Positions 1,530 through 32,061 are shown, counted from the stretch's first letter. The stretch is DNA of 64,000 nucleotides from a virus (IMGVR_UViG_3300046804_001959); one strand, 5' to 3'. Numbers and translations are program-made. The notes: generated by a model from the sequence alone, not told the origin.

Positions 1530-2234
1530 TCACGGTAGCTTCCTTTCGAACTCTTCCCATGCCTTGATATCATCGAGCGCCTTCTTCACGTCTGGGAAGT
1601 GATGGCTGATAATATCCCAACACTGTTCGGCTACGATACGATGTTCCTTCTGAGTTGCCTTATCCATACGCAACTGACAGTAGTGAACCCACGAACGTAG
1701 AGAACCCGACATGATCATGACTGATTCGGTACAACCTTCAGGTAGAACTGCACGAGCCTGTTCCTTGGCAATACCACGATCGACTGCCCATTGATATGCA
1801 AAGTTAGCAGCGTTGATAGCTTGCTGTTGTACTACGTTCCATTCCTCAGCCAGACGATTCTCGTCAGGAGTTAGTTCGACGGAGTTCTGTCGGTTCTTGG
1901 CATCCTGGAGTCTGGCTTCACGTCGTACAAATCCCAGATCCTTTGTTGGATCTGCATAGCGTTGTGAATATTCTTGAAATGAAAAAGAACGGTGGCGAAG
2001 GATTTGACGAGCGATGTCCCGTGTCGTTTTGATTTCCATGGAAACATGGACCATCTCCAACGGTGACCAGTGTTGGTTACGAATGAGATACTGAACCAAC
2101 TTCGGTGCTGTAGCAGTGTTGTTTTGATTGGATGGATTGGATACTCGAGCTGCCCATGCCACGAGTTCGTTTGCAGTCGTGCACTCGGTGTATGCACTTG
2201 GCTTGGTAATACCGATAAGATTCACTTCAGACAT
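1530..2234 (-). CDS. thyX: Flavin-dependent thymidylate synthase ThyX
   Basis: Contains the ThyX signature RHRSFSFQEYSQRY (RHRx7-8SxRY). 234 aa. Confidence 0.9.
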   Translation of the reverse strand: MSEVNLIGITKPSAYTECTTANELVAWAARVSNPSNQNNTATAPKLVQYLIRNQHWSPLEMVHVSMEIKTTRDIARQILRHRSFSFQEYSQRYADPTKDLGFVRREARLQDAKNRQNSVELTPDENRLAEEWNVVQQQAINAANFAYQWAVDRGIAKEQARAVLPEGCTESVMIMSGSLRSWVHYCQLRMDKATQKEHRIVAEQCWDIISHHFPDVKKALDDIKAWEEFERKLP

Positions 2235-10707: not shown

Positions 10708-11145
10708 TTATCTTTTAAGGGTTGCTCTTAAGAACCACGCATGTTTCTTGTGCTGATCAAGGCGGTCTTCTAGAAAATTAACTAATCCGTTTTCACCATA
10801 TTTATCGGCGACGTCTCGTGCTGCCTTCAGGCTAATGAGTACCTTTTGGTTATCATCGAAAAGCTTCTCTGCCATGGCTACAGGAGTAGGGATCGTTTCT
10901 TCTCCCATCACGGTCGTCAGCTCATCGAGTCTCTTGAAGGATCCAGGTGCATAAGCGTTCTGAGCTCTGATCTCTTCGGCGAATGCATCCACAGCTCCGT
11001 AAACTTCAGAGTAGATGGTTTCAAACAAACCATGGTACTGATAGAAGTCAGGACCTTCTACGTTCCAGTGGAAATAGTGTGCCTTCAAATACATTGAGAA
11101 TGTATCTGCAAACGCTTTCTTCAGCGGTACTACGATCTCTTCCAT
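10708..11145 (-). CDS. dps: Dps-family ferritin-like DNA-protection protein
   Basis: FADTFSMYLKAHYFHWNVEGPDFYQYHGLFE and DQHKKHAWFLRA follow the Dps ferroxidase-site pattern (HW..G..F...H). 145 aa. Confidence 0.65.
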   Translation of the reverse strand: MEEIVVPLKKAFADTFSMYLKAHYFHWNVEGPDFYQYHGLFETIYSEVYGAVDAFAEEIRAQNAYAPGSFKRLDELTTVMGEETIPTPVAMAEKLFDDNQKVLISLKAARDVADKYGENGLVNFLEDRLDQHKKHAWFLRATLKR

Positions 11146-11438
11146 TAGTTACACTTCCATCTTCTCAATGACATTGCCTTACGAGTCGGTTTACCCTTCT
11201 CGTCTTTCATCGGACCTTTCATGCCACTCATACGAGCACAGAAAGACTTACGTCTCTTGGCATCCTTCGATCCTGGTTTAACTTTACCTGTAACTGCGGT
11301 CTGAAGCTTCGAACCGGGATTAGCACGACGATAAGCTTTTACACCCTTCTCAGTCATACCAGCACCCTTTTCGGTAGCAATGAAATGACCTTTCGAGTCT
11401 TCACCGCGTTCTATGATGAACTCTTTAAAGCCTATCAT
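11145..11438 (-). CDS. Small basic protein
   Basis: 97 aa, Lys/Arg-rich C-terminus. Confidence 0.35.
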   Translation of the reverse strand: MIGFKEFIIERGEDSKGHFIATEKGAGMTEKGVKAYRRANPGSKLQTAVTGKVKPGSKDAKRRKSFCARMSGMKGPMKDEKGKPTRKAMSLRRWKCN

Positions 11439-13036
11439 TCTGCGTCCTTCTCGATGTTTGCTTCACGACGAACTTTTCTCCAAGTCCATCCCTTCGGTGT
11501 ACGGACTTTGATCATACGAAAGTCTGATTCGACTTCTTTCTCTTCTTCTACCACGTCTGGATGCATCTCGAAACCTGGCTTGATGAAGATGCCGCATTCA
11601 TTGGCAGTCAGACCTACACCGATGCCAGCAGCATACTCGATCTCGAACATCTCGTTCAGATCTGCTTTTTCCTGGCCTGGCGTGTCCTTCTGATATGCTT
11701 TGACAAGTGACTTCGTACCTACTTCAAGTTGAGATGGCTTGTAAGAGTCGTCGATTACCTTCTTCTTGATCTGGTCCTGAGCGATACGGATCTGTTGTGG
11801 ATCCATATCTTTTTCAGGCTTGATGTTCTTTTTGTTACGCTTGATGTATTGAACTTCACCGCGCTCTTGTGTACCAGTCTCTTTATGAGCAGCGGTTCTG
11901 ATACCCATGTAACTTACTTTGCCGTGTTTGTTTAGTGGAGCAACCTTGTTACCTACCTGATCTTCGACAGATTCTGCTGCATCTCTGAACGCAGCTGCAG
12001 TCGGTGCACCCTTTGAGCCAGGCTTACGCATGCGTTCACCTGATCCACGCTTAATACGTTCGCGCTTGGCATGAATGTTATCCCATAGACCACGCTTCTC
12101 TACCAATTCGTTGAACGCTCCGTCGAGAGCATCGTGTGATGTCTTCTCTTCGCGAAGGTCTGCATCGAGTGTCCATGCTCTGCCTTTGGCGATGTAGCTG
12201 TTGACACGAGAGAATGCGTACTGTTCTTGTGTAACTCGTGCATCTTCGTCCCATGCAAAGAGGCCGCGCTCGAACACTTCTCTAAGTGTCGAGAACGGGA
12301 TGCCTGTCTTTTCGGCTTTCTTGACGAGTGTGGATGTAGTGGTATCTTCTGGAAGAACGGCGTTGAGCAGTCTCTTGAGTGTGATAGCCATCGAGTCGTT
12401 GTTTTCGCTAAGATGATCGATCGATTCTCCGATGATATCTACGAGTTGCATCGAGCTCTTATCGTTAAGGCTCTCTACGATACGATTGAACTCTTCGTTG
12501 GTGGCAGCAGGAGCGAGGTGCTGCAGCTTCTCTCCCTTGTTAAAGGAAGCGAGACGCTGATACTCCATCTTACGGATGCGTGGAAGCAGGCGACCAGCCA
12601 ATCTTCTGATCAGCTTCACCTTCTTGTCTACGACTTTGTCTACTTGAATCTTTTCTGCAGTCGTCAGCTCTGCATAAGGTGTTCCCTTACGAGAAGCAAA
12701 CCTCATCTTGACGATGTTACGAGCTTGGACAATGGCTCGAGCCTTCAGCTTTTCGTCTGAGGCGAGCTTATGTTTTGAAACTTCTTTGGCTCTCTGCATC
12801 TTCGGCTCTTTGGCACGAAGAGTGCGTGCTCTCTTCTGTCTTTGGACAAGAGTGAGAGCTTTCTTTTCAGCTAAGGTATCAGTTAGGACTACGGTATCCT
12901 CGTTGTGCTGGCGATTACCGAGACCTTTGAGCTGAGGACGGATCTCGATTCCATCAAGTGGTTTGCCAGTGACAGACTTACCGGTTGGTTTTTTCAATTC
13001 TTGCTTGTCGACCGGTTTTTTATTCTTATCTTCCAT
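11435..13036 (-). CDS. Hypothetical protein, Lys-rich, 533 aa
   Basis: Long ORF with no recognisable motif. Confidence 0.5.
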   Translation of the reverse strand: MEDKNKKPVDKQELKKPTGKSVTGKPLDGIEIRPQLKGLGNRQHNEDTVVLTDTLAEKKALTLVQRQKRARTLRAKEPKMQRAKEVSKHKLASDEKLKARAIVQARNIVKMRFASRKGTPYAELTTAEKIQVDKVVDKKVKLIRRLAGRLLPRIRKMEYQRLASFNKGEKLQHLAPAATNEEFNRIVESLNDKSSMQLVDIIGESIDHLSENNDSMAITLKRLLNAVLPEDTTTSTLVKKAEKTGIPFSTLREVFERGLFAWDEDARVTQEQYAFSRVNSYIAKGRAWTLDADLREEKTSHDALDGAFNELVEKRGLWDNIHAKRERIKRGSGERMRKPGSKGAPTAAAFRDAAESVEDQVGNKVAPLNKHGKVSYMGIRTAAHKETGTQERGEVQYIKRNKKNIKPEKDMDPQQIRIAQDQIKKKVIDDSYKPSQLEVGTKSLVKAYQKDTPGQEKADLNEMFEIEYAAGIGVGLTANECGIFIKPGFEMHPDVVEEEKEVESDFRMIKVRTPKGWTWRKVRREANIEKDAE

Positions 13037-13119
13037 CAGAGTTTCCCTTGGGCTTATCTGTTATTACAACGGGATTGCCGTAGCCTAACCGCAAATCTAT
13101 TTATAACAAAAGAAAACTC

Positions 13120-14457
13120 TTAACGACTAATTTCTTCCCAGTCAAACGAAGCGTATACGCTAGCACCATTAGTATCAGATGCAACAACTAACGCCAACTC
13201 ATATGGTGTATCGGTTAATCCATTTCTTTCTAATTGAAATTTAAATAGAGCTTCTTTTAACAGGGATACAGGTGTGGAACCTTGGTTAGATCCATTAGTA
13301 TAGCCAGATGCAACAATTCTACCACTGGTTACTGATGTTGCAGTAGTATTATACTCTACTGCCGAATCGGAACTAACGTTACTCCAACTTCCACCGGTTG
13401 TTGTACAGCTCTGAACAATAGACCATTTATAGTTGGCATTATTAGTTGTTGCCAATAATGAAAGAGCAGTGAGAATAATAATGGCATCTAAAGCGGTTGA
13501 TTTAAGCCTAATAGAAAGGACTGGATATGATGTTGAAGCAGTTGTAAGAGATCTGGGAGATCCAATTGCATGTCCAGCCGATTGTTGAAGACCCCTTAAT
13601 TCATAACCGCCCTCAGAGATAACCGACGAACACACTTGTGCCATCGTCGAAGAACTAGCAGTGGTTCCAGTATTCTTGATCTCATAGCGTAGAGGCAAAG
13701 ATGCTGTAGTGATATAAGTCGATGTGATCTTGTTAGCATGGTTGAAAGTATGGCAATGGATAATCTTGCCATCGATAACAAATCCCATACGAACAGAACC
13801 GAGACCCAACCACTCGATATCCATCCAGAAGATCTGAGCCTTCGAAGGATCGAGAAGAATACCTGATGGACAAGGACCGATACCTTGACCTGGCACATTG
13901 ACTGATGAACCTTGCAGAGTATCGTTTGACCAATCAGCCTGAGCGACCCGAGTCTCTACTATAGAACCACTGACAGATGATCTCTCTACGAAGTAAACAT
14001 CGGTTCCATCGATCTCGAGGTACATACCGTTGTTTGCACCAAAGTAACCTACTCTTTGACGAAGGTTTGCTTTTGGAGTGGCAGGAACAACCGTGTTGAG
14101 AATAAACAACGATTTACCAGGCTGATAAGAGAAGACTTTAGTCGTCTCTCTTACGATCTCAGCATTGGCAGTCGTAGGAAGATTTAGGTTGACTAGACCT
14201 TGGTTGGCACTAAATGCATATGTAGTTCCAGCTGTATTCGATGTATTCCATAGACCATTGTCTTTATATCGGTGAGACGAATCGAACAGCGTCAATGGAA
14301 CAGACATGCGAGCACGTCCGAAAGCATCGACTGCAACACCAGATGGATTAGCAGGACCTACTAGGTTTCCATATGGATCTGCCAACATGAATGCTTCGAA
14401 GAGCGTTACGTTGTGCGGTTGCTTCCATTCATGCGAGTCGATACGCCATTGTGCCAT
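13120..14457 (-). CDS. Hypothetical protein, 445 aa
   Basis: Long ORF, Ser/Thr/Asn-rich C-terminus. Possibly structural. Confidence 0.5.
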   Translation of the reverse strand: MAQWRIDSHEWKQPHNVTLFEAFMLADPYGNLVGPANPSGVAVDAFGRARMSVPLTLFDSSHRYKDNGLWNTSNTAGTTYAFSANQGLVNLNLPTTANAEIVRETTKVFSYQPGKSLFILNTVVPATPKANLRQRVGYFGANNGMYLEIDGTDVYFVERSSVSGSIVETRVAQADWSNDTLQGSSVNVPGQGIGPCPSGILLDPSKAQIFWMDIEWLGLGSVRMGFVIDGKIIHCHTFNHANKITSTYITTASLPLRYEIKNTGTTASSSTMAQVCSSVISEGGYELRGLQQSAGHAIGSPRSLTTASTSYPVLSIRLKSTALDAIIILTALSLLATTNNANYKWSIVQSCTTTGGSWSNVSSDSAVEYNTTATSVTSGRIVASGYTNGSNQGSTPVSLLKEALFKFQLERNGLTDTPYELALVVASDTNGASVYASFDWEEISR

Positions 14458-15068
14458 TAACTAATCCAGTTCTTAAATCTGACGATGAACGACTCATGAA
14501 TACCCATTCCCTTACGAACGTCATGGTACAGTTCATCTTTGTGTGCTTTACTCATTCCAGATGGTGCCATCTTATGGAATGACTCTTTGTCTCCAGCTGC
14601 AGCGTGCTTACGCATAGCAGTACCAGAAGCAGACTCGATTCCGCCTCCACCTTCCTTGCGTTCACCACCTACTGACTTCACTTTGATGCTCTTGAAGTTG
14701 TAGTGACCGTGACGTCCTTCAGCACCGTTGTACTTATGAAGAAGATCATGAAACTCTTTCACGCGATCTGAGCCGACATGCATGGTAACATGAGTGTAGC
14801 CTTGCTTATGCAGCTTCGACATCTGATGAAGTAGAGTAGGGTGATCCTTACTCATAGCCTCGACGTGTGCACCCTTGACAGCACGAGAAAGATGCTTGAC
14901 CTTCTGCTCAGGTGTTAGCGGGTTCTTCTTGGCATCATGAGATCCAGTCGTCAAGATCTTATGGTCTGCGCCTTCTTTTTTGGCAGCATCCATCACATGC
15001 TTGACTACCATCTCGTGGCCGGCATGGACTGGATTGAATCGACCTTGTGTGATATGAATGGACTTCAT
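14457..15068 (-). CDS. HxGH-motif nucleotidyltransferase (cytidylyltransferase / NMNAT-like fold)
   Basis: GRFNPVHAGHEMVV is the (T/H)xGH motif and IESASGTAMRK is the ISxTxxR-like motif. It overlaps the next gene by 4 nt. Confidence 0.55.
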   Translation of the reverse strand: MKSIHITQGRFNPVHAGHEMVVKHVMDAAKKEGADHKILTTGSHDAKKNPLTPEQKVKHLSRAVKGAHVEAMSKDHPTLLHQMSKLHKQGYTHVTMHVGSDRVKEFHDLLHKYNGAEGRHGHYNFKSIKVKSVGGERKEGGGGIESASGTAMRKHAAAGDKESFHKMAPSGMSKAHKDELYHDVRKGMGIHESFIVRFKNWIS

Positions 15069-16234
15069 AGTGCTTTGTCCCTGTTAAAGTTAGCAGCCGA
15101 GAACTCAGCACGATCAACGATCTTAGTAGGACGATTATGTCTTACAACAACAAATCCCTCGGGTTTTGATTTCTTTCCATTGATGCTATGATCAAACTCT
15201 GCACCGCTCGAGAGCGTATGAGCGAGAACATCCTTTGCCTTCTGCAAGTACTTATGCTGGTTGAGGATGTTCTGAAAGTGTGCACGGTTACGTTGAACAT
15301 GACTGATGGCAGCTTCCATCGCAGCGGTCTTAGCAGCCTTCGAAGCGGGAGTCTTGACTCCTTCGATCTTCTTCATGTGCGACTTCATGTAGTGATCCAT
15401 GAAAGCTTCTACAGTAGGCTTTGTACCTGTACGAACCGTATGGTTGATGTATGTCTTGAGAGGAATCTCATGGCCTTTGATAGCTTCGAAGGTTTCAGGC
15501 TTCGCTTGCTTATTAGCCTTCGCAGCGAGAGTCATAGCTTTCGCAAAACGTTCTTTCTGCTGAGGTGTGTACTTGATCTGCGAGAGATCATGATCGGTAG
15601 AGATGAGATGCACATCGCGATGCAGACCGAACTCGTTGAGATCAGGAGCGTACTCAGCTTGCATATCCTCAAGAGTCTTGCCGTTGTACTTCGTGTGTAC
15701 AGCTACACCTACCTTGGCATTCTTTGCAGCCTTGCCATGTGGAGAGTTGGCAGGAGTCGAGTATGTGATGGTGTTCGGTGTAAAGTGAACACGACCGTTG
15801 GTTTCATGCACATCTTCAGGAGTATGCATGATATCGCCTTGGAAAACACCCTTCTTTGGAGTCACCTTAGGAAGATGATGCAGAGCAGCCTTTAGTTTCG
15901 CTACCAGGCCTGGAGCATGGCCATGGTTCTTCTGGATATCTTCATCGGTATAGTTGATCTTCGGGTTCTTGTTGAACACCGACTTGGATGCAACGAAGAA
16001 TCGACCAGTCTGAGGATGGCGACCGAACACAACAGAAGGAGAACCATCATACTTCATGGTTACCTTCGTAGCGTTGTTCTTACCTGACAGACGATCGTGA
16101 ACGTCTTTCAGGTTATGAAAGGCATGAGAGAAACCCTCGTTGCCTGCATTGATCACGTGATCTTCAGCATGCTCGAGATGCTTGAGCACCTTCTCATCGA
16201 CTTCTTCTGCAAGGAAATTTCTAAAACTTGTCAT
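15065..16234 (-). CDS. KxDG-motif protein, possibly an ATP-dependent polynucleotide ligase or adenylyltransferase
   Basis: TMKYDGSPSV resembles motif I (KxDG) of covalent nucleotidyltransferases and of T4 Rnl1 (KEDGS). An EGFVVV motif lies near the C-terminus. Translationally coupled to its neighbours. Confidence 0.35.
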   Translation of the reverse strand: MTSFRNFLAEEVDEKVLKHLEHAEDHVINAGNEGFSHAFHNLKDVHDRLSGKNNATKVTMKYDGSPSVVFGRHPQTGRFFVASKSVFNKNPKINYTDEDIQKNHGHAPGLVAKLKAALHHLPKVTPKKGVFQGDIMHTPEDVHETNGRVHFTPNTITYSTPANSPHGKAAKNAKVGVAVHTKYNGKTLEDMQAEYAPDLNEFGLHRDVHLISTDHDLSQIKYTPQQKERFAKAMTLAAKANKQAKPETFEAIKGHEIPLKTYINHTVRTGTKPTVEAFMDHYMKSHMKKIEGVKTPASKAAKTAAMEAAISHVQRNRAHFQNILNQHKYLQKAKDVLAHTLSSGAEFDHSINGKKSKPEGFVVVRHNRPTKIVDRAEFSAANFNRDKAL

Positions 16235-16836
16235 CGTATTCTCTTTACCGATCCATCGTGGTTAACGAACCAAGCTTCGAACTGAATTCCTGGATACTCG
16301 TCAGAGAGTTCCAAGAAAGCCTTGAGGTTACTCATGGCATCGTCATACAGTCGAGTCTTAGTGTAGTTCTGTGTATTTAAGTATTTCCGAAAGATCACTT
16401 TCTTGGCTTCGGCCGAAGAGTCGATGCCAAGGTTACCAGCACGTTCGACATGCATCTCGTCGATAGGTAGACCATGATCACGGAAGGTCTGAAGGAACAT
16501 CTTCTTGTTGTCAAAGTCTGCGCGCGCAGTACAGATGATCGCGCGAGAATGAGGGTTCTTCTTGGCCTTGACGATTGCCTTGGCCTTCTCGATCATCTTA
16601 ACAACAGGAACAGAAGTCTTACGAAAAACAGCGGCCGATTTGAATTCCTTAAAGTCGTACTCTTCACCGGCTTTCCTCTTATATGTATTAAACTCTTGGT
16701 TGTCTAGCATTCGAACGACTTTGCCGTCCTTGACGACCGCAACCTTCGCCTTCGTATGGAAGAGCGTCTCATCGATATCGAATATCGTGAGAGTACCTGT
16801 ACCGATGAACTTTTTAAAACGACTTACTTTCTTCAT
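16231..16836 (-). CDS. HAD-superfamily phosphatase (Pnk 3-prime-phosphatase-like)
   Basis: IFDIDETLF is HAD motif I (DxDxT) and ICTAR is motif II. 201 aa. Confidence 0.6.
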   Translation of the reverse strand: MKKVSRFKKFIGTGTLTIFDIDETLFHTKAKVAVVKDGKVVRMLDNQEFNTYKRKAGEEYDFKEFKSAAVFRKTSVPVVKMIEKAKAIVKAKKNPHSRAIICTARADFDNKKMFLQTFRDHGLPIDEMHVERAGNLGIDSSAEAKKVIFRKYLNTQNYTKTRLYDDAMSNLKAFLELSDEYPGIQFEAWFVNHDGSVKRIR

Positions 16837-16852
16837 ATTCTCAGTCTACAAT

Positions 16853-16876
16853 GTTTTCGAAATAATGTACATGCCT
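16853..16876 (-). promoter_or_regulatory. Phage promoter motif (ttcgaaataaTGTACAtgcc)
   Basis: One instance of the recurring GTGTACA-containing motif, upstream of the HAD phosphatase gene. Confidence 0.5.
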
Positions 16877-17873
16877 AAATGTACTGCGTCGTGCTTTTTG
16901 GCGCTTTTGCTATCGCGAAAACACCGAGTCTGGCTTTGTTCACGAACAGAGAACCAAACTTGGCTCCTCTGTCAGAGGTATATCTGGCAAAGTAGATCGC
17001 CGTAAAGTCTCCGTCAGGAATATCACCGTTTAGTCCTTTGTGTAGAGACGTAATCTCGTACATCATGCCCTTCTTTTGCAGCTTCATGTTACCGAGATGA
17101 AACTCATCTACGTTATGAATACCACGTTGTGATTTTCCATAGTCTTTACCGTAGATAGCTCTGCCAATACCTGTATTATCTTTTACTACTCGTGCAATGG
17201 ATTCTTTTGGGGACAAACCTTCCGGTCTCAGAGCTGCTAGATCTTTTACGAACTGTACAGCATCGTTATTAGTATGATACCATGTGTCATCTGATAGCCC
17301 GCCGTACTGCTGAAAGTGACTTGCCTTCGTTCCGGCCTTATGCGAGATCCATGCAACTTGGTTGCCTTTGATATCGACTATCGAGAAGTCGGCCTTCGGT
17401 GCTCGACCTCCTGGATTCGGAGTACTGATGATTCCGGCACACTCTACGGTTCTACCACCGATCTTTAACTTGATAGAAGGAGTTTTTAGTTTTGCAAGCA
17501 AAGATTCTAGCTCTCCTCTGAACAGAGTCAACTCAGCATCTTCGGCTGCAGTACCAGATCCTTCTCCCTTACCACCAAAATCTGGTGTCTTATAGAAGTC
17601 CTTCGGATAGGTGACTGTCACCTTGACGTTAGTCTGAGCATGCTTGCCAGTAAACGTGGCCTTGAAACCGGATCCTTTCATCATATAATGAATGTCTTTT
17701 GGATCTACAGTCAGGTTGCCGATCTTCTGTTTCTTGTCAAGCTTTACTGGACCTTTAACTGTTCCGAATGGAGATTCATTCTTTATTTTTTCCACAAAGA
17801 TAGCGACGCGAGAACCCCCGCGTTTCGTCAAGTCGTTGTGTGCTAAGATCTTGTACTGAACTTCTTTCTTCAT
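16875..17873 (-). CDS. Hypothetical protein, 332 aa
   Basis: ORF with no recognised motif. Confidence 0.45.
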   Translation of the reverse strand: MKKEVQYKILAHNDLTKRGGSRVAIFVEKIKNESPFGTVKGPVKLDKKQKIGNLTVDPKDIHYMMKGSGFKATFTGKHAQTNVKVTVTYPKDFYKTPDFGGKGEGSGTAAEDAELTLFRGELESLLAKLKTPSIKLKIGGRTVECAGIISTPNPGGRAPKADFSIVDIKGNQVAWISHKAGTKASHFQQYGGLSDDTWYHTNNDAVQFVKDLAALRPEGLSPKESIARVVKDNTGIGRAIYGKDYGKSQRGIHNVDEFHLGNMKLQKKGMMYEITSLHKGLNGDIPDGDFTAIYFARYTSDRGAKFGSLFVNKARLGVFAIAKAPKSTTQYI

Positions 17874-17948
17874 GATCTATTTATCAAACAAAAGAAAACC
17901 GACCCGAGCATTGCTGCTGGGTCGGCCGTGTTACTTCTATTTATATTA

Positions 17949-18542
17949 TTAGGCTGCGACGAACCAGTCTGGTACTGGACGCTTGGTCCATGCCATCTTG
18001 AAACGATCTTGTTTCGTCTGATAGAACTTACGATAAGATCCTACGATATCTCGATAGTCCATACATTCAGGGTTGGCTTTCATGGCCAACGGCTGAGGAG
18101 TCTTTGGACCGATAGGGATATTACGAGGTGGGTTCTTCAGAGCTTCGCGAAGGAGCTTGTCAGTGCCATGAACCTTGCCGTAGCGATACGTGTACTCGTC
18201 GCAGAGTGCTACAAAGTGGACGTAGTGCCAGTTGTAGTTGTTGTTCGACTCTGCAGTCCATACCGTGCAAGGATGATGCATGTGCACAGCTCGATAGAAC
18301 GTTTCTTCGCGTTCGTCAGGAAGAATCCATGCCTTCGACATTGTCTTGCCAGACTTTGAAGGGATACGAGTCTGATGGCCATCGAGCATGCGATGAACCG
18401 TCGAGAGCATCTGAGCCGACTCGACGATCATCTTCACGACATGCTTGTCACACTGCAGCTGAGCTGCCTTGACCGGATCGCTATCAAGAATGAAGAGGTT
18501 CATAGTCCTGCCTTTTGTACCAATTCCTTGTAACCACGCCAT
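17949..18542 (-). CDS. Hypothetical protein. The N-terminus faintly resembles pyrimidine-dimer glycosylases.
   Basis: MNLFILDSDPVKAAQLQCDKHVVKMIVESAQML. 197 aa. Confidence 0.3.
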   Translation of the reverse strand: MAWLQGIGTKGRTMNLFILDSDPVKAAQLQCDKHVVKMIVESAQMLSTVHRMLDGHQTRIPSKSGKTMSKAWILPDEREETFYRAVHMHHPCTVWTAESNNNYNWHYVHFVALCDEYTYRYGKVHGTDKLLREALKNPPRNIPIGPKTPQPLAMKANPECMDYRDIVGSYRKFYQTKQDRFKMAWTKRPVPDWFVAA

Positions 18543-18925
18543 GAAGGATGGATGTGGTCTGGTTGCAACGAGTTTGTTTTGATAACAGTATCTGTATGCT
18601 CTGCGGCGATCTGTTGTACTGCAGCGTTCACTAACGGCTTACAGAACTTTTGATTACAAGGAGGAAGGATCCACACCACATTCTGAGAACGAATGCGATG
18701 ACGGATCTTGTTCAGTTCCTTGTATGTATTTACACCTGAATGGTCGTTCGTGCCAAGGCTGATAACGACCTTCTTGGCCTCGAGTGGAGTATTACCCCAC
18801 TTACGATTCCATTGCCATGTATTCCAACCACCCTTCGAATACGAAACGCATTCTTTGGGTGCAAACATCTTCGTGCCAACACCGATAGAATCACCGATGA
18901 TAAGACACGCCAATAGCATGCTCAT
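18500..18925 (-). CDS. SGNH/GDSL-family hydrolase
   Basis: Block I LIIGDSIG (GDSx) and block V DHIHP (DxxH). 141 aa. Confidence 0.65.
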   Translation of the reverse strand: MSMLLACLIIGDSIGVGTKMFAPKECVSYSKGGWNTWQWNRKWGNTPLEAKKVVISLGTNDHSGVNTYKELNKIRHRIRSQNVVWILPPCNQKFCKPLVNAAVQQIAAEHTDTVIKTNSLQPDHIHPSWRGYKELVQKAGL

Positions 18926-21544: not shown

Positions 21545-22654
21545 TCATACTTCCTTCTCCACAATAATCGAGCAACACTTACCACCAAATCCAAACGAGT
21601 TCACCAACACCTTCTTGACATCAGTATCGATGTTCTCTGTCACCACATCCATGTCTGTGTCCTTGCATCCAGCAGTATGAGGGATCACGCTGTTCTGAAT
21701 TGAAAGAATGCTGTAGATGGTCTCGAGTACACCAGCTGCAGCGAACGTATGACCAATCTTACCTTTGTTGGAGTAGATCGGTGCATCAGTAAACTCTCGA
21801 ACCACGTTGTACTCTACCACATCTCCGAGTGGTGTACTCGTTCCATGAGAGTTGACCGAGTCAACGCCTTCAAGATCTAGTTTTTCAAGACACGCGCGAG
21901 CACCAGTCCCAGAAGGAGCAGTAGTATCGTGTGCGTCAGAAGCATTTGCCACTCCTGTAATACGAGCATACACCTTCGAACCCATCTGTTCGGCTTTCTC
22001 GCGAGACTGCAGAATGATGCAACCTGCTCCTTCACCCATGATAAAGCCATCACGATTCTTATCGAAAGGACGAGATACCTTACCAAGTGCTCTGATTACA
22101 GAGAAGAAGTACAGATCCATGGCATTGACACCTGCATCGGATCCACCTACGATCACGTAGTCGTAGTCGTCGAGCAGTCGCATGGCATAGTCGATGCTGA
22201 CCAGCCCGGTCGCACACGCCGAGTATGTCATGGTATTGATACCAGTGTATCCGTACTTGATCGAGATCTGACTGCAGAGGTAATCCATCGTCGAGCGAAG
22301 GATCTGCTTCGGCATAAGCCTCTTGCCAGCTGCCTGAGCTTTTGCTTTCGAAGAGTTTCCGCCGGTGAGAGTCGAAAAGATCACACCTACGTTAGACGAA
22401 TGTGGTAGAGCAGCCATCTGTAGTGCTTGATCGACTGCATGCATGCCATAGTAGACTGTACGGGGAGTCAAATCTTCGTCGATCTTGACATCGGGATAGA
22501 ACCCGTACTGTACTTTTAGACCGTGGCCTTCATGAACATGAGGATCGATAGGCATATGAAAGTCATGGTCGTTGAGCATGTTTTTCCAACACGTAATAGG
22601 ATTATCTCCTAACGCGTCGATCATGCCAAACCCAACTACACAAGCTTCTTTCAT
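21545..22654 (-). CDS. Beta-ketoacyl-(acyl-carrier-protein) synthase, FabF/FabB-like (KAS I/II fold)
   Basis: Active-site Cys in YSACATGLVSIDYA, His in HGTSTPLGD, Lys/His in KGKIGHTFAAAG, C-terminal NSFGFGGKCCS. 369 aa. Confidence 0.8.
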   Translation of the reverse strand: MKEACVVGFGMIDALGDNPITCWKNMLNDHDFHMPIDPHVHEGHGLKVQYGFYPDVKIDEDLTPRTVYYGMHAVDQALQMAALPHSSNVGVIFSTLTGGNSSKAKAQAAGKRLMPKQILRSTMDYLCSQISIKYGYTGINTMTYSACATGLVSIDYAMRLLDDYDYVIVGGSDAGVNAMDLYFFSVIRALGKVSRPFDKNRDGFIMGEGAGCIILQSREKAEQMGSKVYARITGVANASDAHDTTAPSGTGARACLEKLDLEGVDSVNSHGTSTPLGDVVEYNVVREFTDAPIYSNKGKIGHTFAAAGVLETIYSILSIQNSVIPHTAGCKDTDMDVVTENIDTDVKKVLVNSFGFGGKCCSIIVEKEV

Positions 22655-23943: not shown

Positions 23944-24759
23944 TTACTTGACGTTGATGATGCCCTTAAAGTCGTAAGGCACAACGACCGAGTGGACCTT
24001 GCCGTTCTTCACACCTTCGGCAATGTCCTGTAGAGCCATCGCAGCCATGTACTGAGTAGCACCACGGTTGGCGTTCAGAGCAGCGATACGCTCGGCTTCG
24101 AGCTTAGCGGTCTGAACTTCAACCTGCTTACGCTTCTGTTCGTTCTGAGCCTGAACGAGAGCGTTAGCCGAGGCAACGATGTTATCAGCAGGCTTGATCG
24201 AACGAACCAGAACCTGCGAGACGTCGATCACACCGTCAAGCTTTTCAGCTGCCAACTGAGCAACGATTTCCTGACGAACCAGGTTTTCGATCTCTGCGCG
24301 GTTATCAGCCATCTTCAACGACTCGTACTTACGAGCAACCTTATAAGCAGCGTTACGACCGAGCTGACGAACATAGTTGTACATCAGCAGCGTGTCACCT
24401 TCTTCGGTATCAGCATGGAAGCCACGGTTCTTCTCGATGTAGATCTCAGCGACAGAGGTCGGGTTGATCGAGTAAATGACCGACAGATCGAAGTCAGCGA
24501 TCGTCGAGTTGTCAGCAGCCAGCGGAGTCATGTCGGTAATGTCAACCGAGACGTCCTTGGTCGGGAACGTCAGCACGTCACCGAAGATAACCTGGTTGAC
24601 AGTACCAGGCTGCAGCTCAGTGGTCTCGATGGTCTTGTCGAACGAGCGACGAACACCGACTTCGCCAGTTTCGATTCGAGTACATGCAGCCGAAGCGATA
24701 GCGAGAGCCGAGACAGCAGCGAGCTTAAGATAACGATTCATTCTAAATAGTCCTTTCAA
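23944..24759 (-). CDS. SPFH/band-7 (prohibitin/HflK-like) lipoprotein
   Basis: Signal peptide plus lipobox (LAIASAAC), a band-7 domain, and a C-terminal coiled coil with an Ala/Gln-rich tail. Confidence 0.6.
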   Translation of the reverse strand: MKGLFRMNRYLKLAAVSALAIASAACTRIETGEVGVRRSFDKTIETTELQPGTVNQVIFGDVLTFPTKDVSVDITDMTPLAADNSTIADFDLSVIYSINPTSVAEIYIEKNRGFHADTEEGDTLLMYNYVRQLGRNAAYKVARKYESLKMADNRAEIENLVRQEIVAQLAAEKLDGVIDVSQVLVRSIKPADNIVASANALVQAQNEQKRKQVEVQTAKLEAERIAALNANRGATQYMAAMALQDIAEGVKNGKVHSVVVPYDFKGIINVK

Positions 24760-24935: not shown

Positions 24936-25580
24936 TTAACCTGGTCCACTTCCATTACCCCAACCATCGTTGGCAGCTGGTTGATATCCAGCATAGTCCC
25001 AACGTTGTTGGATTCTTGCTTCAACTTCATCAAAATGCAACGGTGTAAAGTCTGTCTGTTCGACACACACGCACAAATAACGAGGATCTGGTTCGTCCAT
25101 CGTAAACGGCACTCCATTTGATGCCGTGTACTTTGTTACATTTCGCATGATCTGATTGGCATGCAGGTGACCGTGCACGTTCACACGGAATCGACCAGTC
25201 ACGCAGTCCGGATGCAGAGGGATATGGCTCAGGATGAACTTATCCACGAATACACGAACACCATGGATCTGCTCGAAGCCAACTTCACGATAGTCATCAT
25301 CACGGAAGATATCGTGGTTGCCACGGATCAGGATTTTGCGACCGTTCAGCTTCTTGACCAGATGCAGGTGCTTGCGATTGATCACCACATCACCGAGGAA
25401 GTAGACAGTGTCGTGTTCCTTGACCTTGGCATTGTGACGCTCGATCATAGTCTCGTTCATCTCGTCGTTTGACGTAAACGGTCGCAGCGGACTACCATCA
25501 GCCAGCTTGAACTTTTCCCACGAGTTCGTGTGACCAAAGTGATGGTCAGAGATCACGAACCGATTTACGAACTTTGTCAT
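24936..25580 (-). CDS. Calcineurin-like metallophosphoesterase
   Basis: Motifs DHHFGH, GDVV, GNHD and GHLH. Confidence 0.7.
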   Translation of the reverse strand: MTKFVNRFVISDHHFGHTNSWEKFKLADGSPLRPFTSNDEMNETMIERHNAKVKEHDTVYFLGDVVINRKHLHLVKKLNGRKILIRGNHDIFRDDDYREVGFEQIHGVRVFVDKFILSHIPLHPDCVTGRFRVNVHGHLHANQIMRNVTKYTASNGVPFTMDEPDPRYLCVCVEQTDFTPLHFDEVEARIQQRWDYAGYQPAANDGWGNGSGPG

Positions 25581-25659
25581 TTCATTGGTTTCCCGCAGCA
25601 GATTACTGTCTTCATTTCACTAGTGGTTTTCCTACCACATACAGAGCAGTATCGAACCA

Positions 25660-25806
25660 TTAATAATGGCCTTCTTCCCAACCGATGCGATATGCTTCTT
25701 GAATAAGAAGCTCAACTCGTTCGTTTTCAGTCTTGGCTTGATTCCACAGGCGATACAAATCTTTGTCGTTCTGGATTCTACGGAAAGCCTTTTCACGGAT
25801 AGTCAT
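25660..25806 (-). CDS. Small hypothetical protein (48 aa)
   Basis: Own translation: MTIREKAFRRIQNDKDLYRLWNQAKTENERVELLIQEAYRIGWEEGHY, with a GGAGA RBS 6 nt upstream. Confidence 0.3.
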   Translation of the reverse strand: MTIREKAFRRIQNDKDLYRLWNQAKTENERVELLIQEAYRIGWEEGHY

Positions 25807-25869
25807 AACGATCTCCATTCGGTATATTCTTACCCTATACCAAACAGCATAATATGTACACAGTTATTT

Positions 25870-26349
25870 TCACAGAACAGTGATTTTTGTGAAACCTTCT
25901 TCTTCAGTAGGCATCTGTGCACTGTTGACCATCGAAGCCAGAACCGAGTTCGGAATGGTCTTGCCTTGACGAGAGTCGAGACGACGAAACCATTCCTCTT
26001 CGCTAAACTCAACGGTTCCAGGCAGAGGGAACACCACAGCCTCGAACTCGTAGCCGTACGGCTTGAGGTAATCGATGAACTTCTTACGTGACTTTGCAGT
26101 CAAGTTCGTTCGATCGATTACCACATCGTTGCCACGTTCTGCATTCCATTCGAGACGCTTCCACATGATCTTCTCAGCAAGACTGATCGAGTCCTTGAAG
26201 ATCTGATCGTAGGTGAACCCGAACAAGCTTCCCATAAACTCGATGATGTTGTCAGTCGAGATAGGAGCCACCGTTGAGGTCTTGTTCTTACTAAACCACG
26301 TCGACTTTCCCGAGGCAGGAACACCAACAAGAATAGTGCAGTTAGGCAT
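25870..26349 (-). CDS. pnk: Polynucleotide 5-prime-kinase (T4 Pnk kinase-domain-only homologue)
   Basis: ILVGVPASGKSTW (P-loop) and VVIDRTNL...FEAVVF parallel the T4 Pnk N-terminal domain. 159 aa, with no HAD domain. Confidence 0.75.
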   Translation of the reverse strand: MPNCTILVGVPASGKSTWFSKNKTSTVAPISTDNIIEFMGSLFGFTYDQIFKDSISLAEKIMWKRLEWNAERGNDVVIDRTNLTAKSRKKFIDYLKPYGYEFEAVVFPLPGTVEFSEEEWFRRLDSRQGKTIPNSVLASMVNSAQMPTEEEGFTKITVL

Positions 26350-27613
26350 TATACTCTACTCCAGGAAACCAAGCATCGCGAATCGCTTCGTACTTTGCAG
26401 TCTTGGTCAGGTTGTTACGAATCGTATTGCGAACATCAGCCCAATACTTCTCGTTGCTGAGCTCTTCGAAGTTCTTGAAGATCAACGCTCGCATATACTG
26501 ATCATACTTTCCAGCATGTTCGATAGCAAAGGTCTTACGATCGATGTTATCGTTACGTATCCACTGCAACTCGTTAGCCAACACATAGGTTGCATCAGCA
26601 ACCGCAAGATTGAATTGACCTTCAAACTGCGTCAACCGGTCGCGATCCTCAGCAGGCAAATGAGCCTTCACGTCATCGAGCTTCTCATCGAGAATCAACT
26701 CAACGATGTTACGATCCTGAAGGATAGCTTCCTTAGCCTTGTGAATCTGCAGATACCAGTGGCACTTCAGCTTCAGCATATGACCATCGTCGAAACGAAC
26801 AACAAACCCCTCCAGATCCTCGAGGTCGCGAACGTACTCGAGGAACGACTTCATCGTATGATTGTCCATCTGCATGCCGATATCCCACTGACGAACAACA
26901 GGGATACGATACTGAGGAGCTACATCCATCATCCACTTAAACGAACGATACTCTCCGGTATGCATATTACGAGCAGCAGTCAAGATCAATTGATCTTCCT
27001 TATAGTCAAGAACAATACGCTGCTTACGCGAACACCATTCGAAGATCGGAGTGTAGCCGCATTCAATTACCCACTGAGCAAACCGAACGTACTCGGGATT
27101 GCGAGCAACGAACTCTTCGACAGGCTTTGCCACATCGGTAGCACCCATCTTCGTGCCCCAGATCATCTCACCATTCACAATGAACGGAGCGATCATCGAG
27201 CCATCCAGCTTCTCAAGGATAGCATGAGGACGAGACAGATCGACTACATGATCCTGAGTTTCTTCACGTTCGTTGACGTTGAAGAACTTATGGAACGGAC
27301 GACGAAGGATCTCGCCAGTCTCTGAGTCGAAGATGATACCACGACACTCACGACGAATGGCAGCCACACTATCTTCGATATAACGACTACCAATTAGTCC
27401 CGGTTCGGAATGAATAATCTCTTCGCGATAAACATCAGGAAACGTATCAGCCATCATCACGTTGTAGTTGATGACAGTATAGCCTTCCTTCTCAGCCACA
27501 ACGAATTCGTCGCGACCTTCGATTGCAGGCAGCACATCAGAGATGTTGATGATGGTGGGAAATTCGTAGTTCATGATAACCTCAAAAAGAAATGGTTGAA
27601 GCGACCGATCCAC
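26342..27613 (-). CDS. rnlA: RNA ligase 1 (T4 RnlA-like)
   Basis: ECRGIIFD, motif I EKLDGSM, motif IV EGFVVRF, KLK. Co-linear with T4 Rnl1. 423 aa. Confidence 0.8.
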   Translation of the reverse strand: MDRSLQPFLFEVIMNYEFPTIINISDVLPAIEGRDEFVVAEKEGYTVINYNVMMADTFPDVYREEIIHSEPGLIGSRYIEDSVAAIRRECRGIIFDSETGEILRRPFHKFFNVNEREETQDHVVDLSRPHAILEKLDGSMIAPFIVNGEMIWGTKMGATDVAKPVEEFVARNPEYVRFAQWVIECGYTPIFEWCSRKQRIVLDYKEDQLILTAARNMHTGEYRSFKWMMDVAPQYRIPVVRQWDIGMQMDNHTMKSFLEYVRDLEDLEGFVVRFDDGHMLKLKCHWYLQIHKAKEAILQDRNIVELILDEKLDDVKAHLPAEDRDRLTQFEGQFNLAVADATYVLANELQWIRNDNIDRKTFAIEHAGKYDQYMRALIFKNFEELSNEKYWADVRNTIRNNLTKTAKYEAIRDAWFPGVEYNA

Positions 27614-31394: not shown

Positions 31395-31432
31395 CAGTAT
31401 AATCGATGTGTGGTTATTTGTACACCGGTAAT
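31395..31432 (-). promoter_or_regulatory. Promoter: TGTACA-N17-TATACT upstream of uvsX
   Basis: The spacing is identical to the other copies. RBS AAGGAGA. Confidence 0.6.
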
Positions 31433-32061
31433 TCCATCGCCCAGTTAACTTCTGCTTTATTAATATTATACTCTTCACCGATGGTTCCTTTAATCCATAC
31501 ATTGTAAGGCATGCAAATTCGCAGATGATTACTTCGTGTGGGAGGTACTGCATGATATAGATCCGGCGGGAATATGTATAAGTCTCCCGACGTGCACGGC
31601 ATTCTACGTGATTCTTCGTTTCGATGGTTTACATTCTGCGAAGGCAACCATATCTGCTTGAAACGAGAGTAGTTGATGAAGTCGATAGCATCGTCCATCC
31701 CATTGCCGTTGAAGTAGAACACACCTGACAAGATGCAGTTCTGATGGCAATGCGGTGTGTGCTGTGCACCTGGTTCGTTGTAAGTGAACCATGAGTTGGT
31801 AATGTTAAACTCCACCGACGGTGGAGGTGACATGATCTCATTGATATAGATCGACGTATGATGTCTGATAAAGTCTTTGATACCGATCAGCTCATGATGG
31901 TATCGATCTAGCACATATCGTTCGAGACTGAGACGATGCGGGCCTGTTCGATCACACATCTCTTCAGGCGCATGCGTCAATGCGATTGCCATCTCTTCCT
32001 GAGTAATCTCACGACCGATGTTGGCATGATACACCGACACCGGAAACAAATCATGGAACAT
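31414..32061 (-). CDS. 2OG-Fe(II) oxygenase-like protein (phage TIGR02466-like family)
   Basis: HTPHCHQNC...GDLYIFPPDLYHAV gives an HxH...H arrangement on a predicted jelly-roll. 215 aa. Confidence 0.45.
   Translation of the reverse strand: MFHDLFPVSVYHANIGREITQEEMAIALTHAPEEMCDRTGPHRLSLERYVLDRYHHELIGIKDFIRHHTSIYINEIMSPPPSVEFNITNSWFTYNEPGAQHTPHCHQNCILSGVFYFNGNGMDDAIDFINYSRFKQIWLPSQNVNHRNEESRRMPCTSGDLYIFPPDLYHAVPPTRSNHLRICMPYNVWIKGTIGEEYNINKAEVNWAMELPVYK

Follow-up and report, generated by a model that had tools for sequence, protein, structure and literature searches.

Nucleic-acid end healing by a phosphatase followed by sealing by a ligase is encoded in adjacent genes in systems such as bacterial Pnkp(-Hen1) and T4 Pnk-Rnl1. 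The described ligases closest to the protein considered here are the ATP-dependent RNA ligases Rnl5 (Naegleria NgrRnl, PDB 5cot), Rnl2/REL1 (T4 Rnl2, TbREL1) and Rnl1 (T4 RnlA), and T4 itself carries two RNA ligases. We have analysed a locus in the window, a 64,000-nt stretch of a phage genome of ~164 kb, in which genes for a HAD phosphatase, a DUF6267 protein and an HxGH adenylyltransferase adjoin. The locus resembles Pnkp(-Hen1) and Pnk-Rnl1 in placing a phosphatase next to a candidate ligase; in contrast to them, it contains neither a kinase nor a methyltransferase, the phosphatase is optional across lineages and the constant partner is the adenylyltransferase. There is, in our judgement, about an even chance that the region is a phage-specific module for healing and sealing breaks, built on an unrecognised ligase family. 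The features of the locus are as follows.

17949..18542, minus strand, DenV-like pyrimidine-dimer glycosylase (PF03013 E 4e-5; phrog_624)
17938..17945, minus strand, TATAAATA, a T4-type late promoter motif 64 nt ahead of the gene for the 332-aa protein
16875..17873, minus strand, 332-aa protein, first gene after the late-promoter motif (phrog_13937, function unknown)
16231..16836, minus strand, HAD-superfamily phosphatase, 201 aa, relative of the Pnk phosphatase domain (from the ORF call, motifs and phrog_415)
15065..16234, minus strand, DUF6267 protein, 389 aa, predicted divergent ligase-type covalent nucleotidyltransferase
14457..15068, minus strand, HIGH-motif (HxGH) adenylyltransferase-like protein, 203 aa, NMNAT/PPAT-like
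14455..14459, minus strand, TAATG, in which the stop codon of the adenylyltransferase gene overlaps the start codon of the following gene (read from the sequence)
13120..14457, minus strand, virion structural protein homologue, 445 aa, final gene of the string (phrog_1645 E 2e-140)
11435..13036, minus strand, 533-aa Lys/Arg-rich protein with DUF5824 (PF19141 E 6e-7; phrog_23027)

The initial annotation described the HAD, DUF6267 and HxGH genes as a translationally coupled operon of three. All three ORFs are real, as are the ATGA overlaps at both junctions (16231-16234 and 15065-15068, where the plus strand reads tcat) and the motifs reported for the proteins, DIDET in the HAD, TMKYDGS in the middle protein and HAGH in the third. 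The overlaps are not special evidence of coupling, however, since a 4-nt overlap is the commonest same-strand junction here (~13 of ~65), and they reflect genome compaction. Nor do the three genes constitute the operon by themselves; they are part of a longer string, which continues through the TAATG overlap into the structural gene.

The motifs of the DUF6267 protein lie at the following positions.

16040..16060, minus strand, ligase motif I, TMKYDGS, residues 59-65, with K61 as the predicted nucleotidyl acceptor
15209..15565, minus strand, insertion made up entirely of helices, residues 224-342, separating the motif III/IIIa region from motif IV
15110..15160, minus strand, ligase motifs IV-V, EGFVVVRHNRPTKIVDR, residues 359-375

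The DUF6267 model has the nucleotidyltransferase-domain fold of the covalent nucleotidyltransferase superfamily, with a KxDG motif I (MKYDGS) whose lysine occupies the nucleophilic position. K61 is placed at the end of strand 57-61, ahead of strand 67-72, and motif I of ligases sits in the same strand-loop-strand setting. QGD, EG and the first lysine of motif V occur in that order, on strands, a correspondence read from motif order and secondary structure rather than from a residue-level structural alignment, and on these same grounds K61 is predicted to lie in a nucleotide pocket. Conservation was counted in representatives of 50% clusters (150 sequences; 32-75% identity), 93-100% of which keep K61, D63, G64, Q132-G133-D134, E359-G360, K371 and R375. 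In motif I, K61 is found in 141/145, D63 in 138/147 and G64 in 142/147 representatives; motif III QGD is kept in 139-142 of 148; and in motifs IV-V, E359 is retained in 134/139, G360 in 137/139, K371 in 137/137 and R375 in 132/137. Motif III carries D in place of E, and the E-to-K spacing of motifs IV-V is 12, compared with 13 in T4 Rnl1 (EGYVAV..KIK) and in the Rnl1 of the window.

Sequence comparison did not link the protein to any known ligase family. Its only Pfam match is DUF6267 itself, searches of NCBIfam and of the PDB (phmmer and hmmsearch) with DUF6267 returned nothing, and in hhalign comparisons with T4 gp30 and Rnl1 the probability stayed below 1%. The comparison of 15065..16234 with ligases that the initial annotation had called for bears out the fold, a nucleotidyltransferase domain, while sequence profiles and hhalign against gp30 and Rnl1 give no match. 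Compared with Rnl5, Rnl2/REL1 and Rnl1, DUF6267 has no detectable sequence homology, holds its helical domain inside the nucleotidyltransferase domain rather than appended to it, replaces the second motif V lysine by V373 (KxVDR), and has an additional invariant N-terminal HxxHxED helix and an obligate HIGH-motif adenylyltransferase partner, which to our knowledge accompanies no described Rnl family. It differs from T4 gp30, the ATP-dependent DNA ligases and NAD+-dependent LigA in the absence of a profile match and of an OB or DNA-binding domain, and from LigA also in the absence of domain Ia, BRCT or Zn finger. The model stops 14 residues past motif V and, apart from the helical insertion (residues 224-342), has no further domain. 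In the reading we prefer, DUF6267 would be a very divergent lysine-nucleotidylating polynucleotide ligase in which K61 of KYDG takes AMP, motifs III (QGD), IV (EG) and V (KxVDR) complete the pocket, and the 120-residue helical insertion stands in place of the usual OB or C-terminal domain.

The HAD phosphatase is predicted to be the healing component. Its motif I was read from the sequence, and the D-x-D-x-T pattern is invariant in the alignment.

16765..16779, minus strand, HAD motif I, DIDET, residues 20-24

Across 14 sequences of 31-94% identity, the residues of motifs I-IV (D20, D22, T24, T103, K145, D165 and D166) do not vary. The sole PHROG match of the HAD is phrog_415 (E 3.7e-8, residues 16-174), four further family members matched only this PHROG, and the phosphatase half of T4 PseT (residues 154-298) matches it at 3e-24. 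Because the HAD and the PseT phosphatase half share phrog_415, the end-healing and sealing interpretation advanced in the initial annotation is reasonable. The HAD is thus related to the Pnk phosphatase domain and may act on polynucleotides. Other searches were less productive: no match exceeded the thresholds of Pfam and NCBIfam, a PDB profile search with the HAD alignment found nothing, and hhalign of the 14-HAD alignment with PseT aligned only 15 columns, around motif I, with 28% probability. Like the PseT domain and the stand-alone phrog_415 phage HADs, the protein has DxDxT and all four catalytic motifs; it differs from PseT in being a separate protein of 201 aa, with ~78 residues between motifs I and II, and in its lack of linkage to the kinase gene of the window. 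In the preferred reading, this Pnk-type HAD, translationally coupled upstream in the present lineage, would remove 3'-phosphates and so render ends sealable.

A bona fide Pnk-Rnl1-phosphoesterase set is located 9 kb from the module in the same genome.

24936..27613, minus strand, T4-type RNA repair set comprising Rnl1 (26342..27613), kinase-only Pnk (25870..26349) and phosphoesterase (24936..25580)

Rnl1 (PF09511 E 6.8e-34) and the kinase-only Pnk (AAA_33, aligning only with T4 PseT residues 1-144) were both correctly identified in the initial annotation, which went on to propose that the HAD supplies the missing Pnk phosphatase. Nothing is missing from this set, because the phosphoesterase (phrog_547, E 2e-47) is encoded directly downstream of the kinase, and a phosphoesterase likewise accompanies the kinase in bacterial Pnkp.

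The same annotation raised the possibility that the module is a second RNA or tRNA repair pathway directed against anticodon nucleases, an interpretation we consider rather unlikely. The HAD would clear 2',3'-cyclic or 3'-phosphate, the kinase-only Pnk would phosphorylate the 5' end, DUF6267 would reseal the tRNA and the HxGH enzyme would be accessory. The KxDGS motif and the spacing of motifs IV-V are indeed Rnl1-like, a helical accessory domain without an OB fold is typical of RNA ligases, and a fusion to a Pol-beta-type nucleotidyltransferase occurs in one relative of DUF6267. The profile that the HAD shares with the Pnk phosphatase domain is in keeping with tRNA repair, as are the weak matches of 3/14 family members (best E 0.029) to the HAD_SAK_1 of RNA-repair proteins, and the two RNA ligases of T4 offer a precedent. 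Against this, the window already contains the complete Rnl1, kinase and phosphoesterase set, none of the loci examined links a kinase to the DUF6267-adenylyltransferase pair, and the universally linked adenylyltransferase is left without a role. Moreover, the pair belongs to the core genes of T4-like cyanophages; an Rnl1 match is lacking in most of these phages, reviews of them report no gp30, and this HAD was found in none of the cultured phage records, cyanophages included. Repair directed against anticodon nucleases is thus not specifically indicated.

Linkage across loci distinguishes the constant from the optional components. Wherever 4 kb of room is available, the adenylyltransferase gene is downstream of DUF6267 on the same strand (42/42 loci); the two are fused in 9/66 loci, both domains occur in one protein in 41/47 long representatives, and S-PM2d138 is a DUF6267/adenylyltransferase fusion with a linker of ~12 residues. 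The HAD is present in 13/84 DUF6267-centred loci and the pair is missing in 21/63 HAD-centred loci, although the HAD beside the pair recurs in lineages in which DUF6267 is only 31-54% identical. The conserved unit is the ligase-like protein plus the HxGH adenylyltransferase; the triad of genes as a conserved unit was ruled out.

The adenylyltransferase has an (H/T)xGH motif and an ISxTxxR-type motif on a Rossmann-like fold; the former was read from the sequence as follows.

15015..15026, minus strand, HAGH motif, residues 15-18

G17 and H18 are conserved in all 18 adenylyltransferases compared, most of which have Thr in place of the first His of HxGH. The family consensus, TxGH, is accompanied by invariant GSDR and KYNG motifs, and these features set the family apart from its nearest described systems, the NadM/NadR-type enzymes (MjNMNAT 1f9a, Francisella NadM-Nudix 2qjt, phage KVP40 NatV) and PPAT. 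The fold is nearest NMN/NaMN adenylyltransferases, with PPAT almost as close structurally, and the top PDB profile match is the TmcAL-family protein MJ0951. In the preferred reading this enzyme would make or regenerate the adenylyl donor at the ligase, by NMN + ATP -> NAD+, using the NMN released on ligase adenylylation; alternatively, it may adenylylate 5'-phosphate ends directly.

A pathway acting on small-molecule nucleotides instead of nucleic acids appears distinctly unlikely. The HxGH enzyme would then produce NAD+ or another adenylylated cofactor, for example in opposition to an NAD+-depleting defence, the HAD would be a nucleotidase, and DUF6267 would perform lysyl-AMP chemistry on a non-polynucleotide substrate or simply bind nucleotide. 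Such a pathway would suit the NMN/NaMN-like fold, the NMNAT label that JGI automatically assigns to some fusions, and the occurrence of the adenylyltransferase family in jumbo phages without a DUF6267 match. Cofactor and nucleotide-sugar pathways commonly pair a HAD with a HIGH-motif transferase, as in GmhB/HldE, and relatives of the HAD are encoded away from the pair, in one pair-less case adjoining a PnrA-like nucleoside-binding protein and a PAP2 phosphatase. However, the adenylyltransferase scores far below the NMNAT equivalog cut-offs (25 bits against at least 127, with only the first ~70 residues aligning) and matches none of the PHROGs annotated as NMNAT, and a scan of 29 window proteins revealed neither Nampt nor another partner for NAD salvage. 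In addition, DUF6267 combines a ligase fold with conservation of all its candidate nucleotidyl-transfer motifs, a class in which we know of no member acting solely on small molecules.

The distribution of the pair bears on a sealing function. Among 'Synechococcus phage' records, DUF6267 is found in 362 and the adenylyltransferase in 375, against 377 with gp41, and both are present in 61/61 'Cyanophage' records; T4 gp30-like matches in Synechococcus phages number fewer than 63, and Rnl1 matches fewer than 43 records against 377. Beyond virus records, 185,579 species genomes yielded only 31 DUF6267 loci, nearly all on MAG or phage-sized contigs. The pair is confined to viruses and occurs in nearly all T4-like cyanophages, and the gene order gp43-UvsX-gp41-...-pair is common to the window, S-PM2, Syn9 and S-SZBM1. 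Cyanomyoviruses have been described as having no g30 homologue, distant unidentified homologues being considered possible but absence more probable (PMC2984593). As nearly all T4-like cyanophages carry the pair and have no recognised DNA ligase, it may be their missing nucleic-acid sealing enzyme. With regard to substrate, we lean slightly towards duplex-DNA nicks arising in replication, repair or maturation before packaging, over broken tRNA. A gp30-type ligase is present in DLP6, a T4-like Stenotrophomonas phage, and DUF6267 matches one Stenotrophomonas phage record, not necessarily DLP6; therefore, complementarity between the pair and gp30 may not be strict.

In the window, TATAAATA occurs eight times, all on the minus strand, compared with 1.0 expected, and 0/100 shuffles reached this number. 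The match at 17938-17945 is the only T4-type late promoter motif nearby and lies upstream of a fourth gene (16875..17873); together with that at 13098-13105, which belongs to the DUF5824 gene, it brackets five genes. The 38 nt that precede the HAD gene contain no promoter motif, and scans for sigma-70 promoters and terminators did not rise above chance. TATAAATA also occurs within 130 nt upstream of DUF6267 in 29/93 HAD-less loci against a background of 1.7%. DUF6267 stands behind late-type, not early, promoter motifs, unlike T4 gp30. In the module, the genes would be read together with late genes.

The same arrangement could arise if the proteins served chiefly in virion structure or assembly, or entered the cell as cargo along with the DNA, and if adjacency reflected the packing of late genes and not a common pathway. 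T4 Rnl1/gp63 has the additional role of promoting the attachment of tail fibres, and a ligase fold might similarly be retained for a morphogenetic role. This we regard as very unlikely, although the late-promoter motifs heading the string here and DUF6267 in 29/93 other loci, the ordinariness of 4-nt overlaps in this genome and the variable giant fusions of up to 1246 aa would accord with it. So would the next gene, whose product shares 58% identity with proteins that bear the annotation virion structural protein in cyanophages, and the detection in purified S-SZBM1 virions of the adenylyltransferase homologue, annotated 'cytidylyltransferase', and of its downstream neighbour (PMC9146016). That homologue was detected from only 2 peptides, however, and the virion list does not include the DUF6267 homologue (PMC9146016). 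In cyanophages the pair sits in the replication module, far from rather than adjacent to the homologous structural gene. All three proteins keep their catalytic motifs almost unchanged across deeply diverged relatives, a pattern that speaks for enzymes.

The neighbours of the module vary in constancy. The gene for the 332-aa protein, for which a PDB sequence search gave no match, precedes the HAD gene in only a few of the related loci, while the DenV-like glycosylase gene does so in most of the close relatives and is a conserved neighbour in this clade. A DUF5824-type protein is encoded downstream of the pair in 16 loci and is tied to it by fusions, Melnitz gene 17 joining the adenylyltransferase to DUF5824 and P0245 combining the adenylyltransferase, phrog_23027 and DUF6267.

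The initial annotation described three overlapping minus-strand ORFs, and these were found exactly as described; the ATGA overlaps claimed for both junctions and all of the quoted motifs (DIDET, TMKYDGS and HAGH) are likewise present in the sequence:

16836..16231, minus strand: HAD phosphatase, ORF of 201 aa
16234..15065, minus strand: DUF6267 protein, ORF of 389 aa
15068..14457, minus strand: adenylyltransferase, ORF of 203 aa

The best-supported interpretation of this triad is a break-healing and sealing module, in which the Pnk-type HAD protein would act as the 3′-phosphatase, optional across lineages, the DUF6267 protein would be a new ligase-family enzyme, and the dedicated adenylyltransferase is suggested to supply or regenerate the adenylyl donor. 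The 4-nt overlap is the commonest junction type in the window, where a crude gene set has it at ∼13 of ∼65 junctions between genes on one strand, and it reflects genome compaction, not special coupling. The string continues past the triad, the adenylyltransferase stop codon overlapping the start codon of a 445-aa gene (TAATG) whose product is a homologue of a cyanophage virion structural protein (phrog_1645, E 2e-140).

The DUF6267 protein matches its Pfam family end to end (E 1.5e-101), with no second Pfam match. The ligase-like character proposed for 15065..16234 found no echo in sequence or profile comparison, as searches for ligases by PDB phmmer, PDB profiles and NCBIfam were empty and hhalign of DUF6267 against T4 gp30, the T4 DNA ligase, and T4 Rnl1 produced no match; the predicted structure, by contrast, resembles the ligase superfamily, so that the link is made by structure comparison and short motifs only. 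The AlphaFold2 model, for which 27 aligned sequences were the input, has high confidence (pLDDT 87.5, pTM 0.85). Foldseek with this model yielded no match at E ≤ 0.001; the top list, entirely at E > 0.001, consists of DNA ligases, LigA, Rnl2, capping enzymes and T4 DNA ligase. Across the structure comparisons, the best matches are RNA ligases. The predicted motifs lie on β strands of the model in canonical ligase order:

motif I: MK61YDGS
motif III: FQGD134
motif IV: E359GFVVV
motif V: TK371IVDR

The E-to-K spacing between motifs IV and V is 12 in DUF6267 compared with 13 in both T4 Rnl1 and the window Rnl1. Among 150 representatives of 50%-identity clusters, 32–75% identical to the query, K61 is retained in 141/145, G64 in 142/147, E359 in 134/139, G360 in 137/139 and K371 in 137/137, and an HxxHxED helix at the N-terminus is conserved as strongly as the ligase motifs. 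The model also contains a helical domain of 120 residues inserted ahead of motif IV and has no OB fold, and valine takes the place of the second lysine of motif V. By predicted fold and motifs, DUF6267 constitutes a new and highly divergent ligase-superfamily family, very probably with catalytic activity. A literature search found no mention of DUF6267 and we found no published precedent for its assignment to this superfamily.

The HIGH-motif nucleotidyltransferase encoded at 14457..15068 matches Pfam CTP_transf_like at E 3.9e-5 and the PHROG 'cytidyltransferase' at E 4e-46. Its best NCBIfam matches are archaeal-type NMNATs at scores far under the cut-off (25 bits vs 127) and its best PDB profile match is the TmcAL-family protein MJ0951 (E 0.004); we call it a putative NMNAT/PPAT-like adenylyltransferase. 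The enzyme is tightly associated with DUF6267, lying downstream on the same strand in 42/42 DUF6267-centred IMG/VR loci whose downstream flank extends for 4 kb or more. Both are encoded within one ORF in 9/66 loci, both domains occur, in either order, in 41 of 47 long representatives, and S-PM2d138 is a natural fusion of the two. DUF6267 and the adenylyltransferase are an obligate pair, and the short linker in the fusion argues for channelling. No prior recognition of this pairing was found: no paper linking cyanophage, RNA ligase and cytidylyltransferase was located and the polyvalent-protein paper does not cover the pair.

The adenylyltransferase family is also present in jumbo phages of Salmonella, Klebsiella, Xanthomonas, Serratia, Pseudomonas, Escherichia and Erwinia (phage records H69, H72 and H78–H80), in which tblastn detected no DUF6267 match, suggesting that the enzyme can act on its own, with no ligase-like partner. 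A rival reading of the module is a small-molecule NAD or cofactor pathway, which we regard as improbable.

A third member of the module may be encoded close by:

11435..13036, minus strand: 533-aa Lys/Arg-rich protein (DUF5824, phrog_23027, phrog_16028)

The adenylyltransferase is often fused to a DUF5824-type protein, as in gene 17 of Methylophilales phage Melnitz, and the 533-aa protein is a homologue of this fusion partner. The family, recorded at L083:4953-6905 as well as in the window, recurs on the downstream side of the pair in 16 loci, and the 1246-aa fusion relative P0245 combines the adenylyltransferase, phrog_23027, which is the N-terminal family of the 533-aa protein, and DUF6267 in one chain. 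The 533-aa protein looks like a third member of the pair's module.

The HAD protein had been proposed as a Pnk-type phosphatase, and this reading gained support at the profile level. None of its four HAD motifs varies across 14 relatives. Pfam and NCBIfam gave nothing significant, with weak, scattered matches to DUF2608, NIF, HAD_SAK_1, LNS2 and class B acid phosphatase. The sole PHROG match is phrog_415 (E 3.7e-8, residues 16–174), as it is for four other family members, and residues 154–298 of T4 PseT, the phosphatase domain, match the same profile at 3e-24. Direct hhalign of HAD against PseT aligned motif I only. HAD is found in 13/84 DUF6267-centred loci, always touching DUF6267 or the adenylyltransferase, including lineages with DUF6267 only 31–54% identical; it was found in 0 cultured phage records. 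In HAD-centred loci DUF6267 follows in 42/63, and in the remaining 21, with HAD 55–61% identical, the gene lies near the clamp loader, lysozyme or gp43 polymerase. Thus, HAD is a recurrent but optional companion of the pair. Two such relatives (L138:4965-5570 and L149:4995-5600), located in other T4-like phage contigs with the clamp loader or lysozyme on one side and the gp43 polymerase on the other, lack DUF6267 in the surrounding 5 kb. The genes after HAD in L149 encode a homologue of PnrA-like nucleoside-binding lipoproteins and a PAP2 phosphatase, a neighbourhood which hints at nucleoside salvage.

The HAD protein had further been taken for the phosphatase missing from another set of genes. 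The Rnl1 and kinase-only Pnk of this set are both real, and a third gene adjoins them:

26342..27613: Rnl1
25870..26349: kinase-only Pnk
24936..25580, minus strand: phosphoesterase (phrog_547, E 2e-47; weak Metallophos_2, calcineurin-like)

The phosphoesterase gene lies directly downstream of the kinase gene, an arrangement known from bacterial Pnkp, so the Rnl1/Pnk set needs no distant phosphatase and the claim falls. A Pnkp-like trio of kinase, metallophosphoesterase and ligase is spread over these three window genes. A weak match to the T4 PseT phosphatase domain at 1569–1688 (E 0.21), considered as a Pnk-phosphatase remnant, was rejected as it falls in ThyX. The phage carries two separate break-repair sets, the classical one (Rnl1, Pnk kinase, phosphoesterase) and the putative new one (HAD, DUF6267, adenylyltransferase).

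The distribution of the pair was compared with that of other replication and repair genes by tblastn of each query against phage records:

DUF6267: 362 'Synechococcus phage' records, 61 'Cyanophage' records
adenylyltransferase: 375 'Synechococcus phage' records, 61 'Cyanophage' records
gp41 helicase: 377 'Synechococcus phage' records, 61 'Cyanophage' records
T4 gp30 DNA ligase: fewer than 63 'Synechococcus phage' records, no 'Cyanophage' group among the matches listed
Rnl1: fewer than 43 'Synechococcus phage' records, no 'Cyanophage' group among the matches listed

DUF6267 and the adenylyltransferase each matched 24 Prochlorococcus phage records and, combined with counts near that of gp41, this indicates that the pair is a core feature of T4-like cyanophages. 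DUF6267 is also present in Pelagibacter and Methylophilales phages. In 185,579 species genomes it was detected at only 31 loci, nearly all on MAG or phage-sized contigs; the family is virus-restricted. Matches labelled cellular include the Nonlabens xiamenensis 1Q3 isolate (L179, 188-kb contig) and a Prochlorococcus single cell (L176, 189-kb contig), which are probably co-sequenced or infecting T4-like phages. A 2010 review of cyanomyovirus genomics did not find a g30 ligase homologue, considering unidentified distant homologues possible and absence more probable (PMC2984593). A gp30-type ligase is present in T4-like Stenotrophomonas phage DLP6 and one Stenotrophomonas phage record matches DUF6267; this is a possible exception to DUF6267/gp30 complementarity, if the two are the same phage.

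The evidence leans slightly towards duplex DNA nicks as substrate, owing to the core status of the pair in phages without gp30 and mostly without Rnl1, its position in the replication module of cyanophages, the DenV neighbour in this clade and the separate Rnl1 set in this genome. Counter to this lean stands the predicted fold of DUF6267, with RNA ligases as its best structural matches. A second tRNA repair path is a rival reading, which we consider unlikely.

Expression of the module was addressed through promoter motifs. The T4 late-promoter consensus TATAAATA occurs in 8 exact copies in the window, all on the minus (coding) strand, compared with 1.0 expected, and 0/100 shuffles of the window reached 8:

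TATAAATA, minus strand: 13098, 17938, 28657, 36756, 46730, 49640, 54959, 61620

Five copies are intergenic and two lie 61–64 nt ahead of a start codon, and the eight are consistent with T4-type late promoters. The nearest (17938–17945 and 13098–13105) flank five genes, encoding a 332-aa protein with no assigned function, HAD, DUF6267, the adenylyltransferase and the structural protein. A scan of 11000–19500 for sigma-70 promoters and intrinsic terminators revealed no excess over shuffled expectation. In 29/93 HAD-less loci a copy of TATAAATA precedes DUF6267 by no more than 130 nt, as against a 1.7% same-strand background. In S-PM2, S-SZBM1 and Melnitz the looser 7-base core ATAAATA, a short motif given here as a raw occurrence, precedes the corresponding gene or string by 27–47 nt. 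In ∼30 close relatives (L089–L129) TATAAATA is found exactly 147 nt upstream of DUF6267, within the 3′ end of the HAD gene, where it coincides with KYINT codons and was rejected as promoter evidence; in those phages it might serve DUF6267 as an internal late promoter or be a codon coincidence. The window HAD has KYLNT at this position and TATAAATA is missing there.

Proteomics of S-SZBM1 virions detected a single enzyme, the 'cytidylyltransferase' S-SZBM1_140, with 2 peptides; its downstream neighbour _139 was also detected, and the DUF6267 protein is not in the virion list (PMC9146016). S-SZBM1_140 shares 45.5% identity with the window adenylyltransferase, and directly upstream of it is the S-SZBM1 DUF6267 gene, _141. 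Combined with the promoter motifs, this suggests that the module is likely expressed late and is perhaps virion-associated. A mainly structural or injected role, for which the virion detection speaks, is a rival reading that we consider highly improbable.

A more specific form of the break-sealing interpretation, which we judge decidedly improbable, is that the pair is the missing nick-sealing DNA ligase of cyanomyovirus-type (Kyanoviridae-like) T4 phages, a self-recharging two-enzyme ligase expressed late and possibly in the virion. The ligase domain would take AMP from NAD+ and free NMN, from which, with ATP, the adenylyltransferase domain would at once remake NAD+, and the late, possibly virion-borne module would seal nicks before packaging or just after injection. 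If true, some of the ocean's most abundant viruses would possess a ligase of novel architecture. DUF6267 and the 'cytidylyltransferase' are found in virtually all T4-like cyanophage genomes and are represented in thousands of metagenomic protein clusters, currently annotated as a hypothetical protein (Pfam DUF) and an auxiliary metabolic gene without clear function, respectively. The pair is a concrete, testable candidate for the ligase missing from cyanomyoviruses, and the puzzle of a ligase with a dedicated adenylyltransferase could reveal a new route of adenylyl-donor supply.

The window phage is uncultured and T4-like, encoding a gp43-type polymerase, UvsX, a gp41-type helicase, ThyX and a DenV-like glycosylase. 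The order gp43-UvsX-gp41-...-DUF6267-adenylyltransferase is common to the window, S-PM2, Syn9 and S-SZBM1. An identical copy of the window DUF6267 protein is carried on a 164-kb JGI contig, and megablast of window 13000–18000 against 50,697 phage records gave no nucleotide match. Other genes in the window include:

1530..2234: ThyX
23944..24759: SPFH/Band 7 protein
31414..32061: 2OG-Fe(II) oxygenase, between UvsX and gp43
34873..36045, plus strand: peptidase M15 and chitinase-class-I-like lysin
21545..22654, minus strand: 369-aa ORF with beta-ketoacyl synthase N- and C-terminal domains (E 6e-25 and 9e-20)

The last of these, a fatty-acid/polyketide condensing enzyme, is unusual cargo in a T4-like phage.
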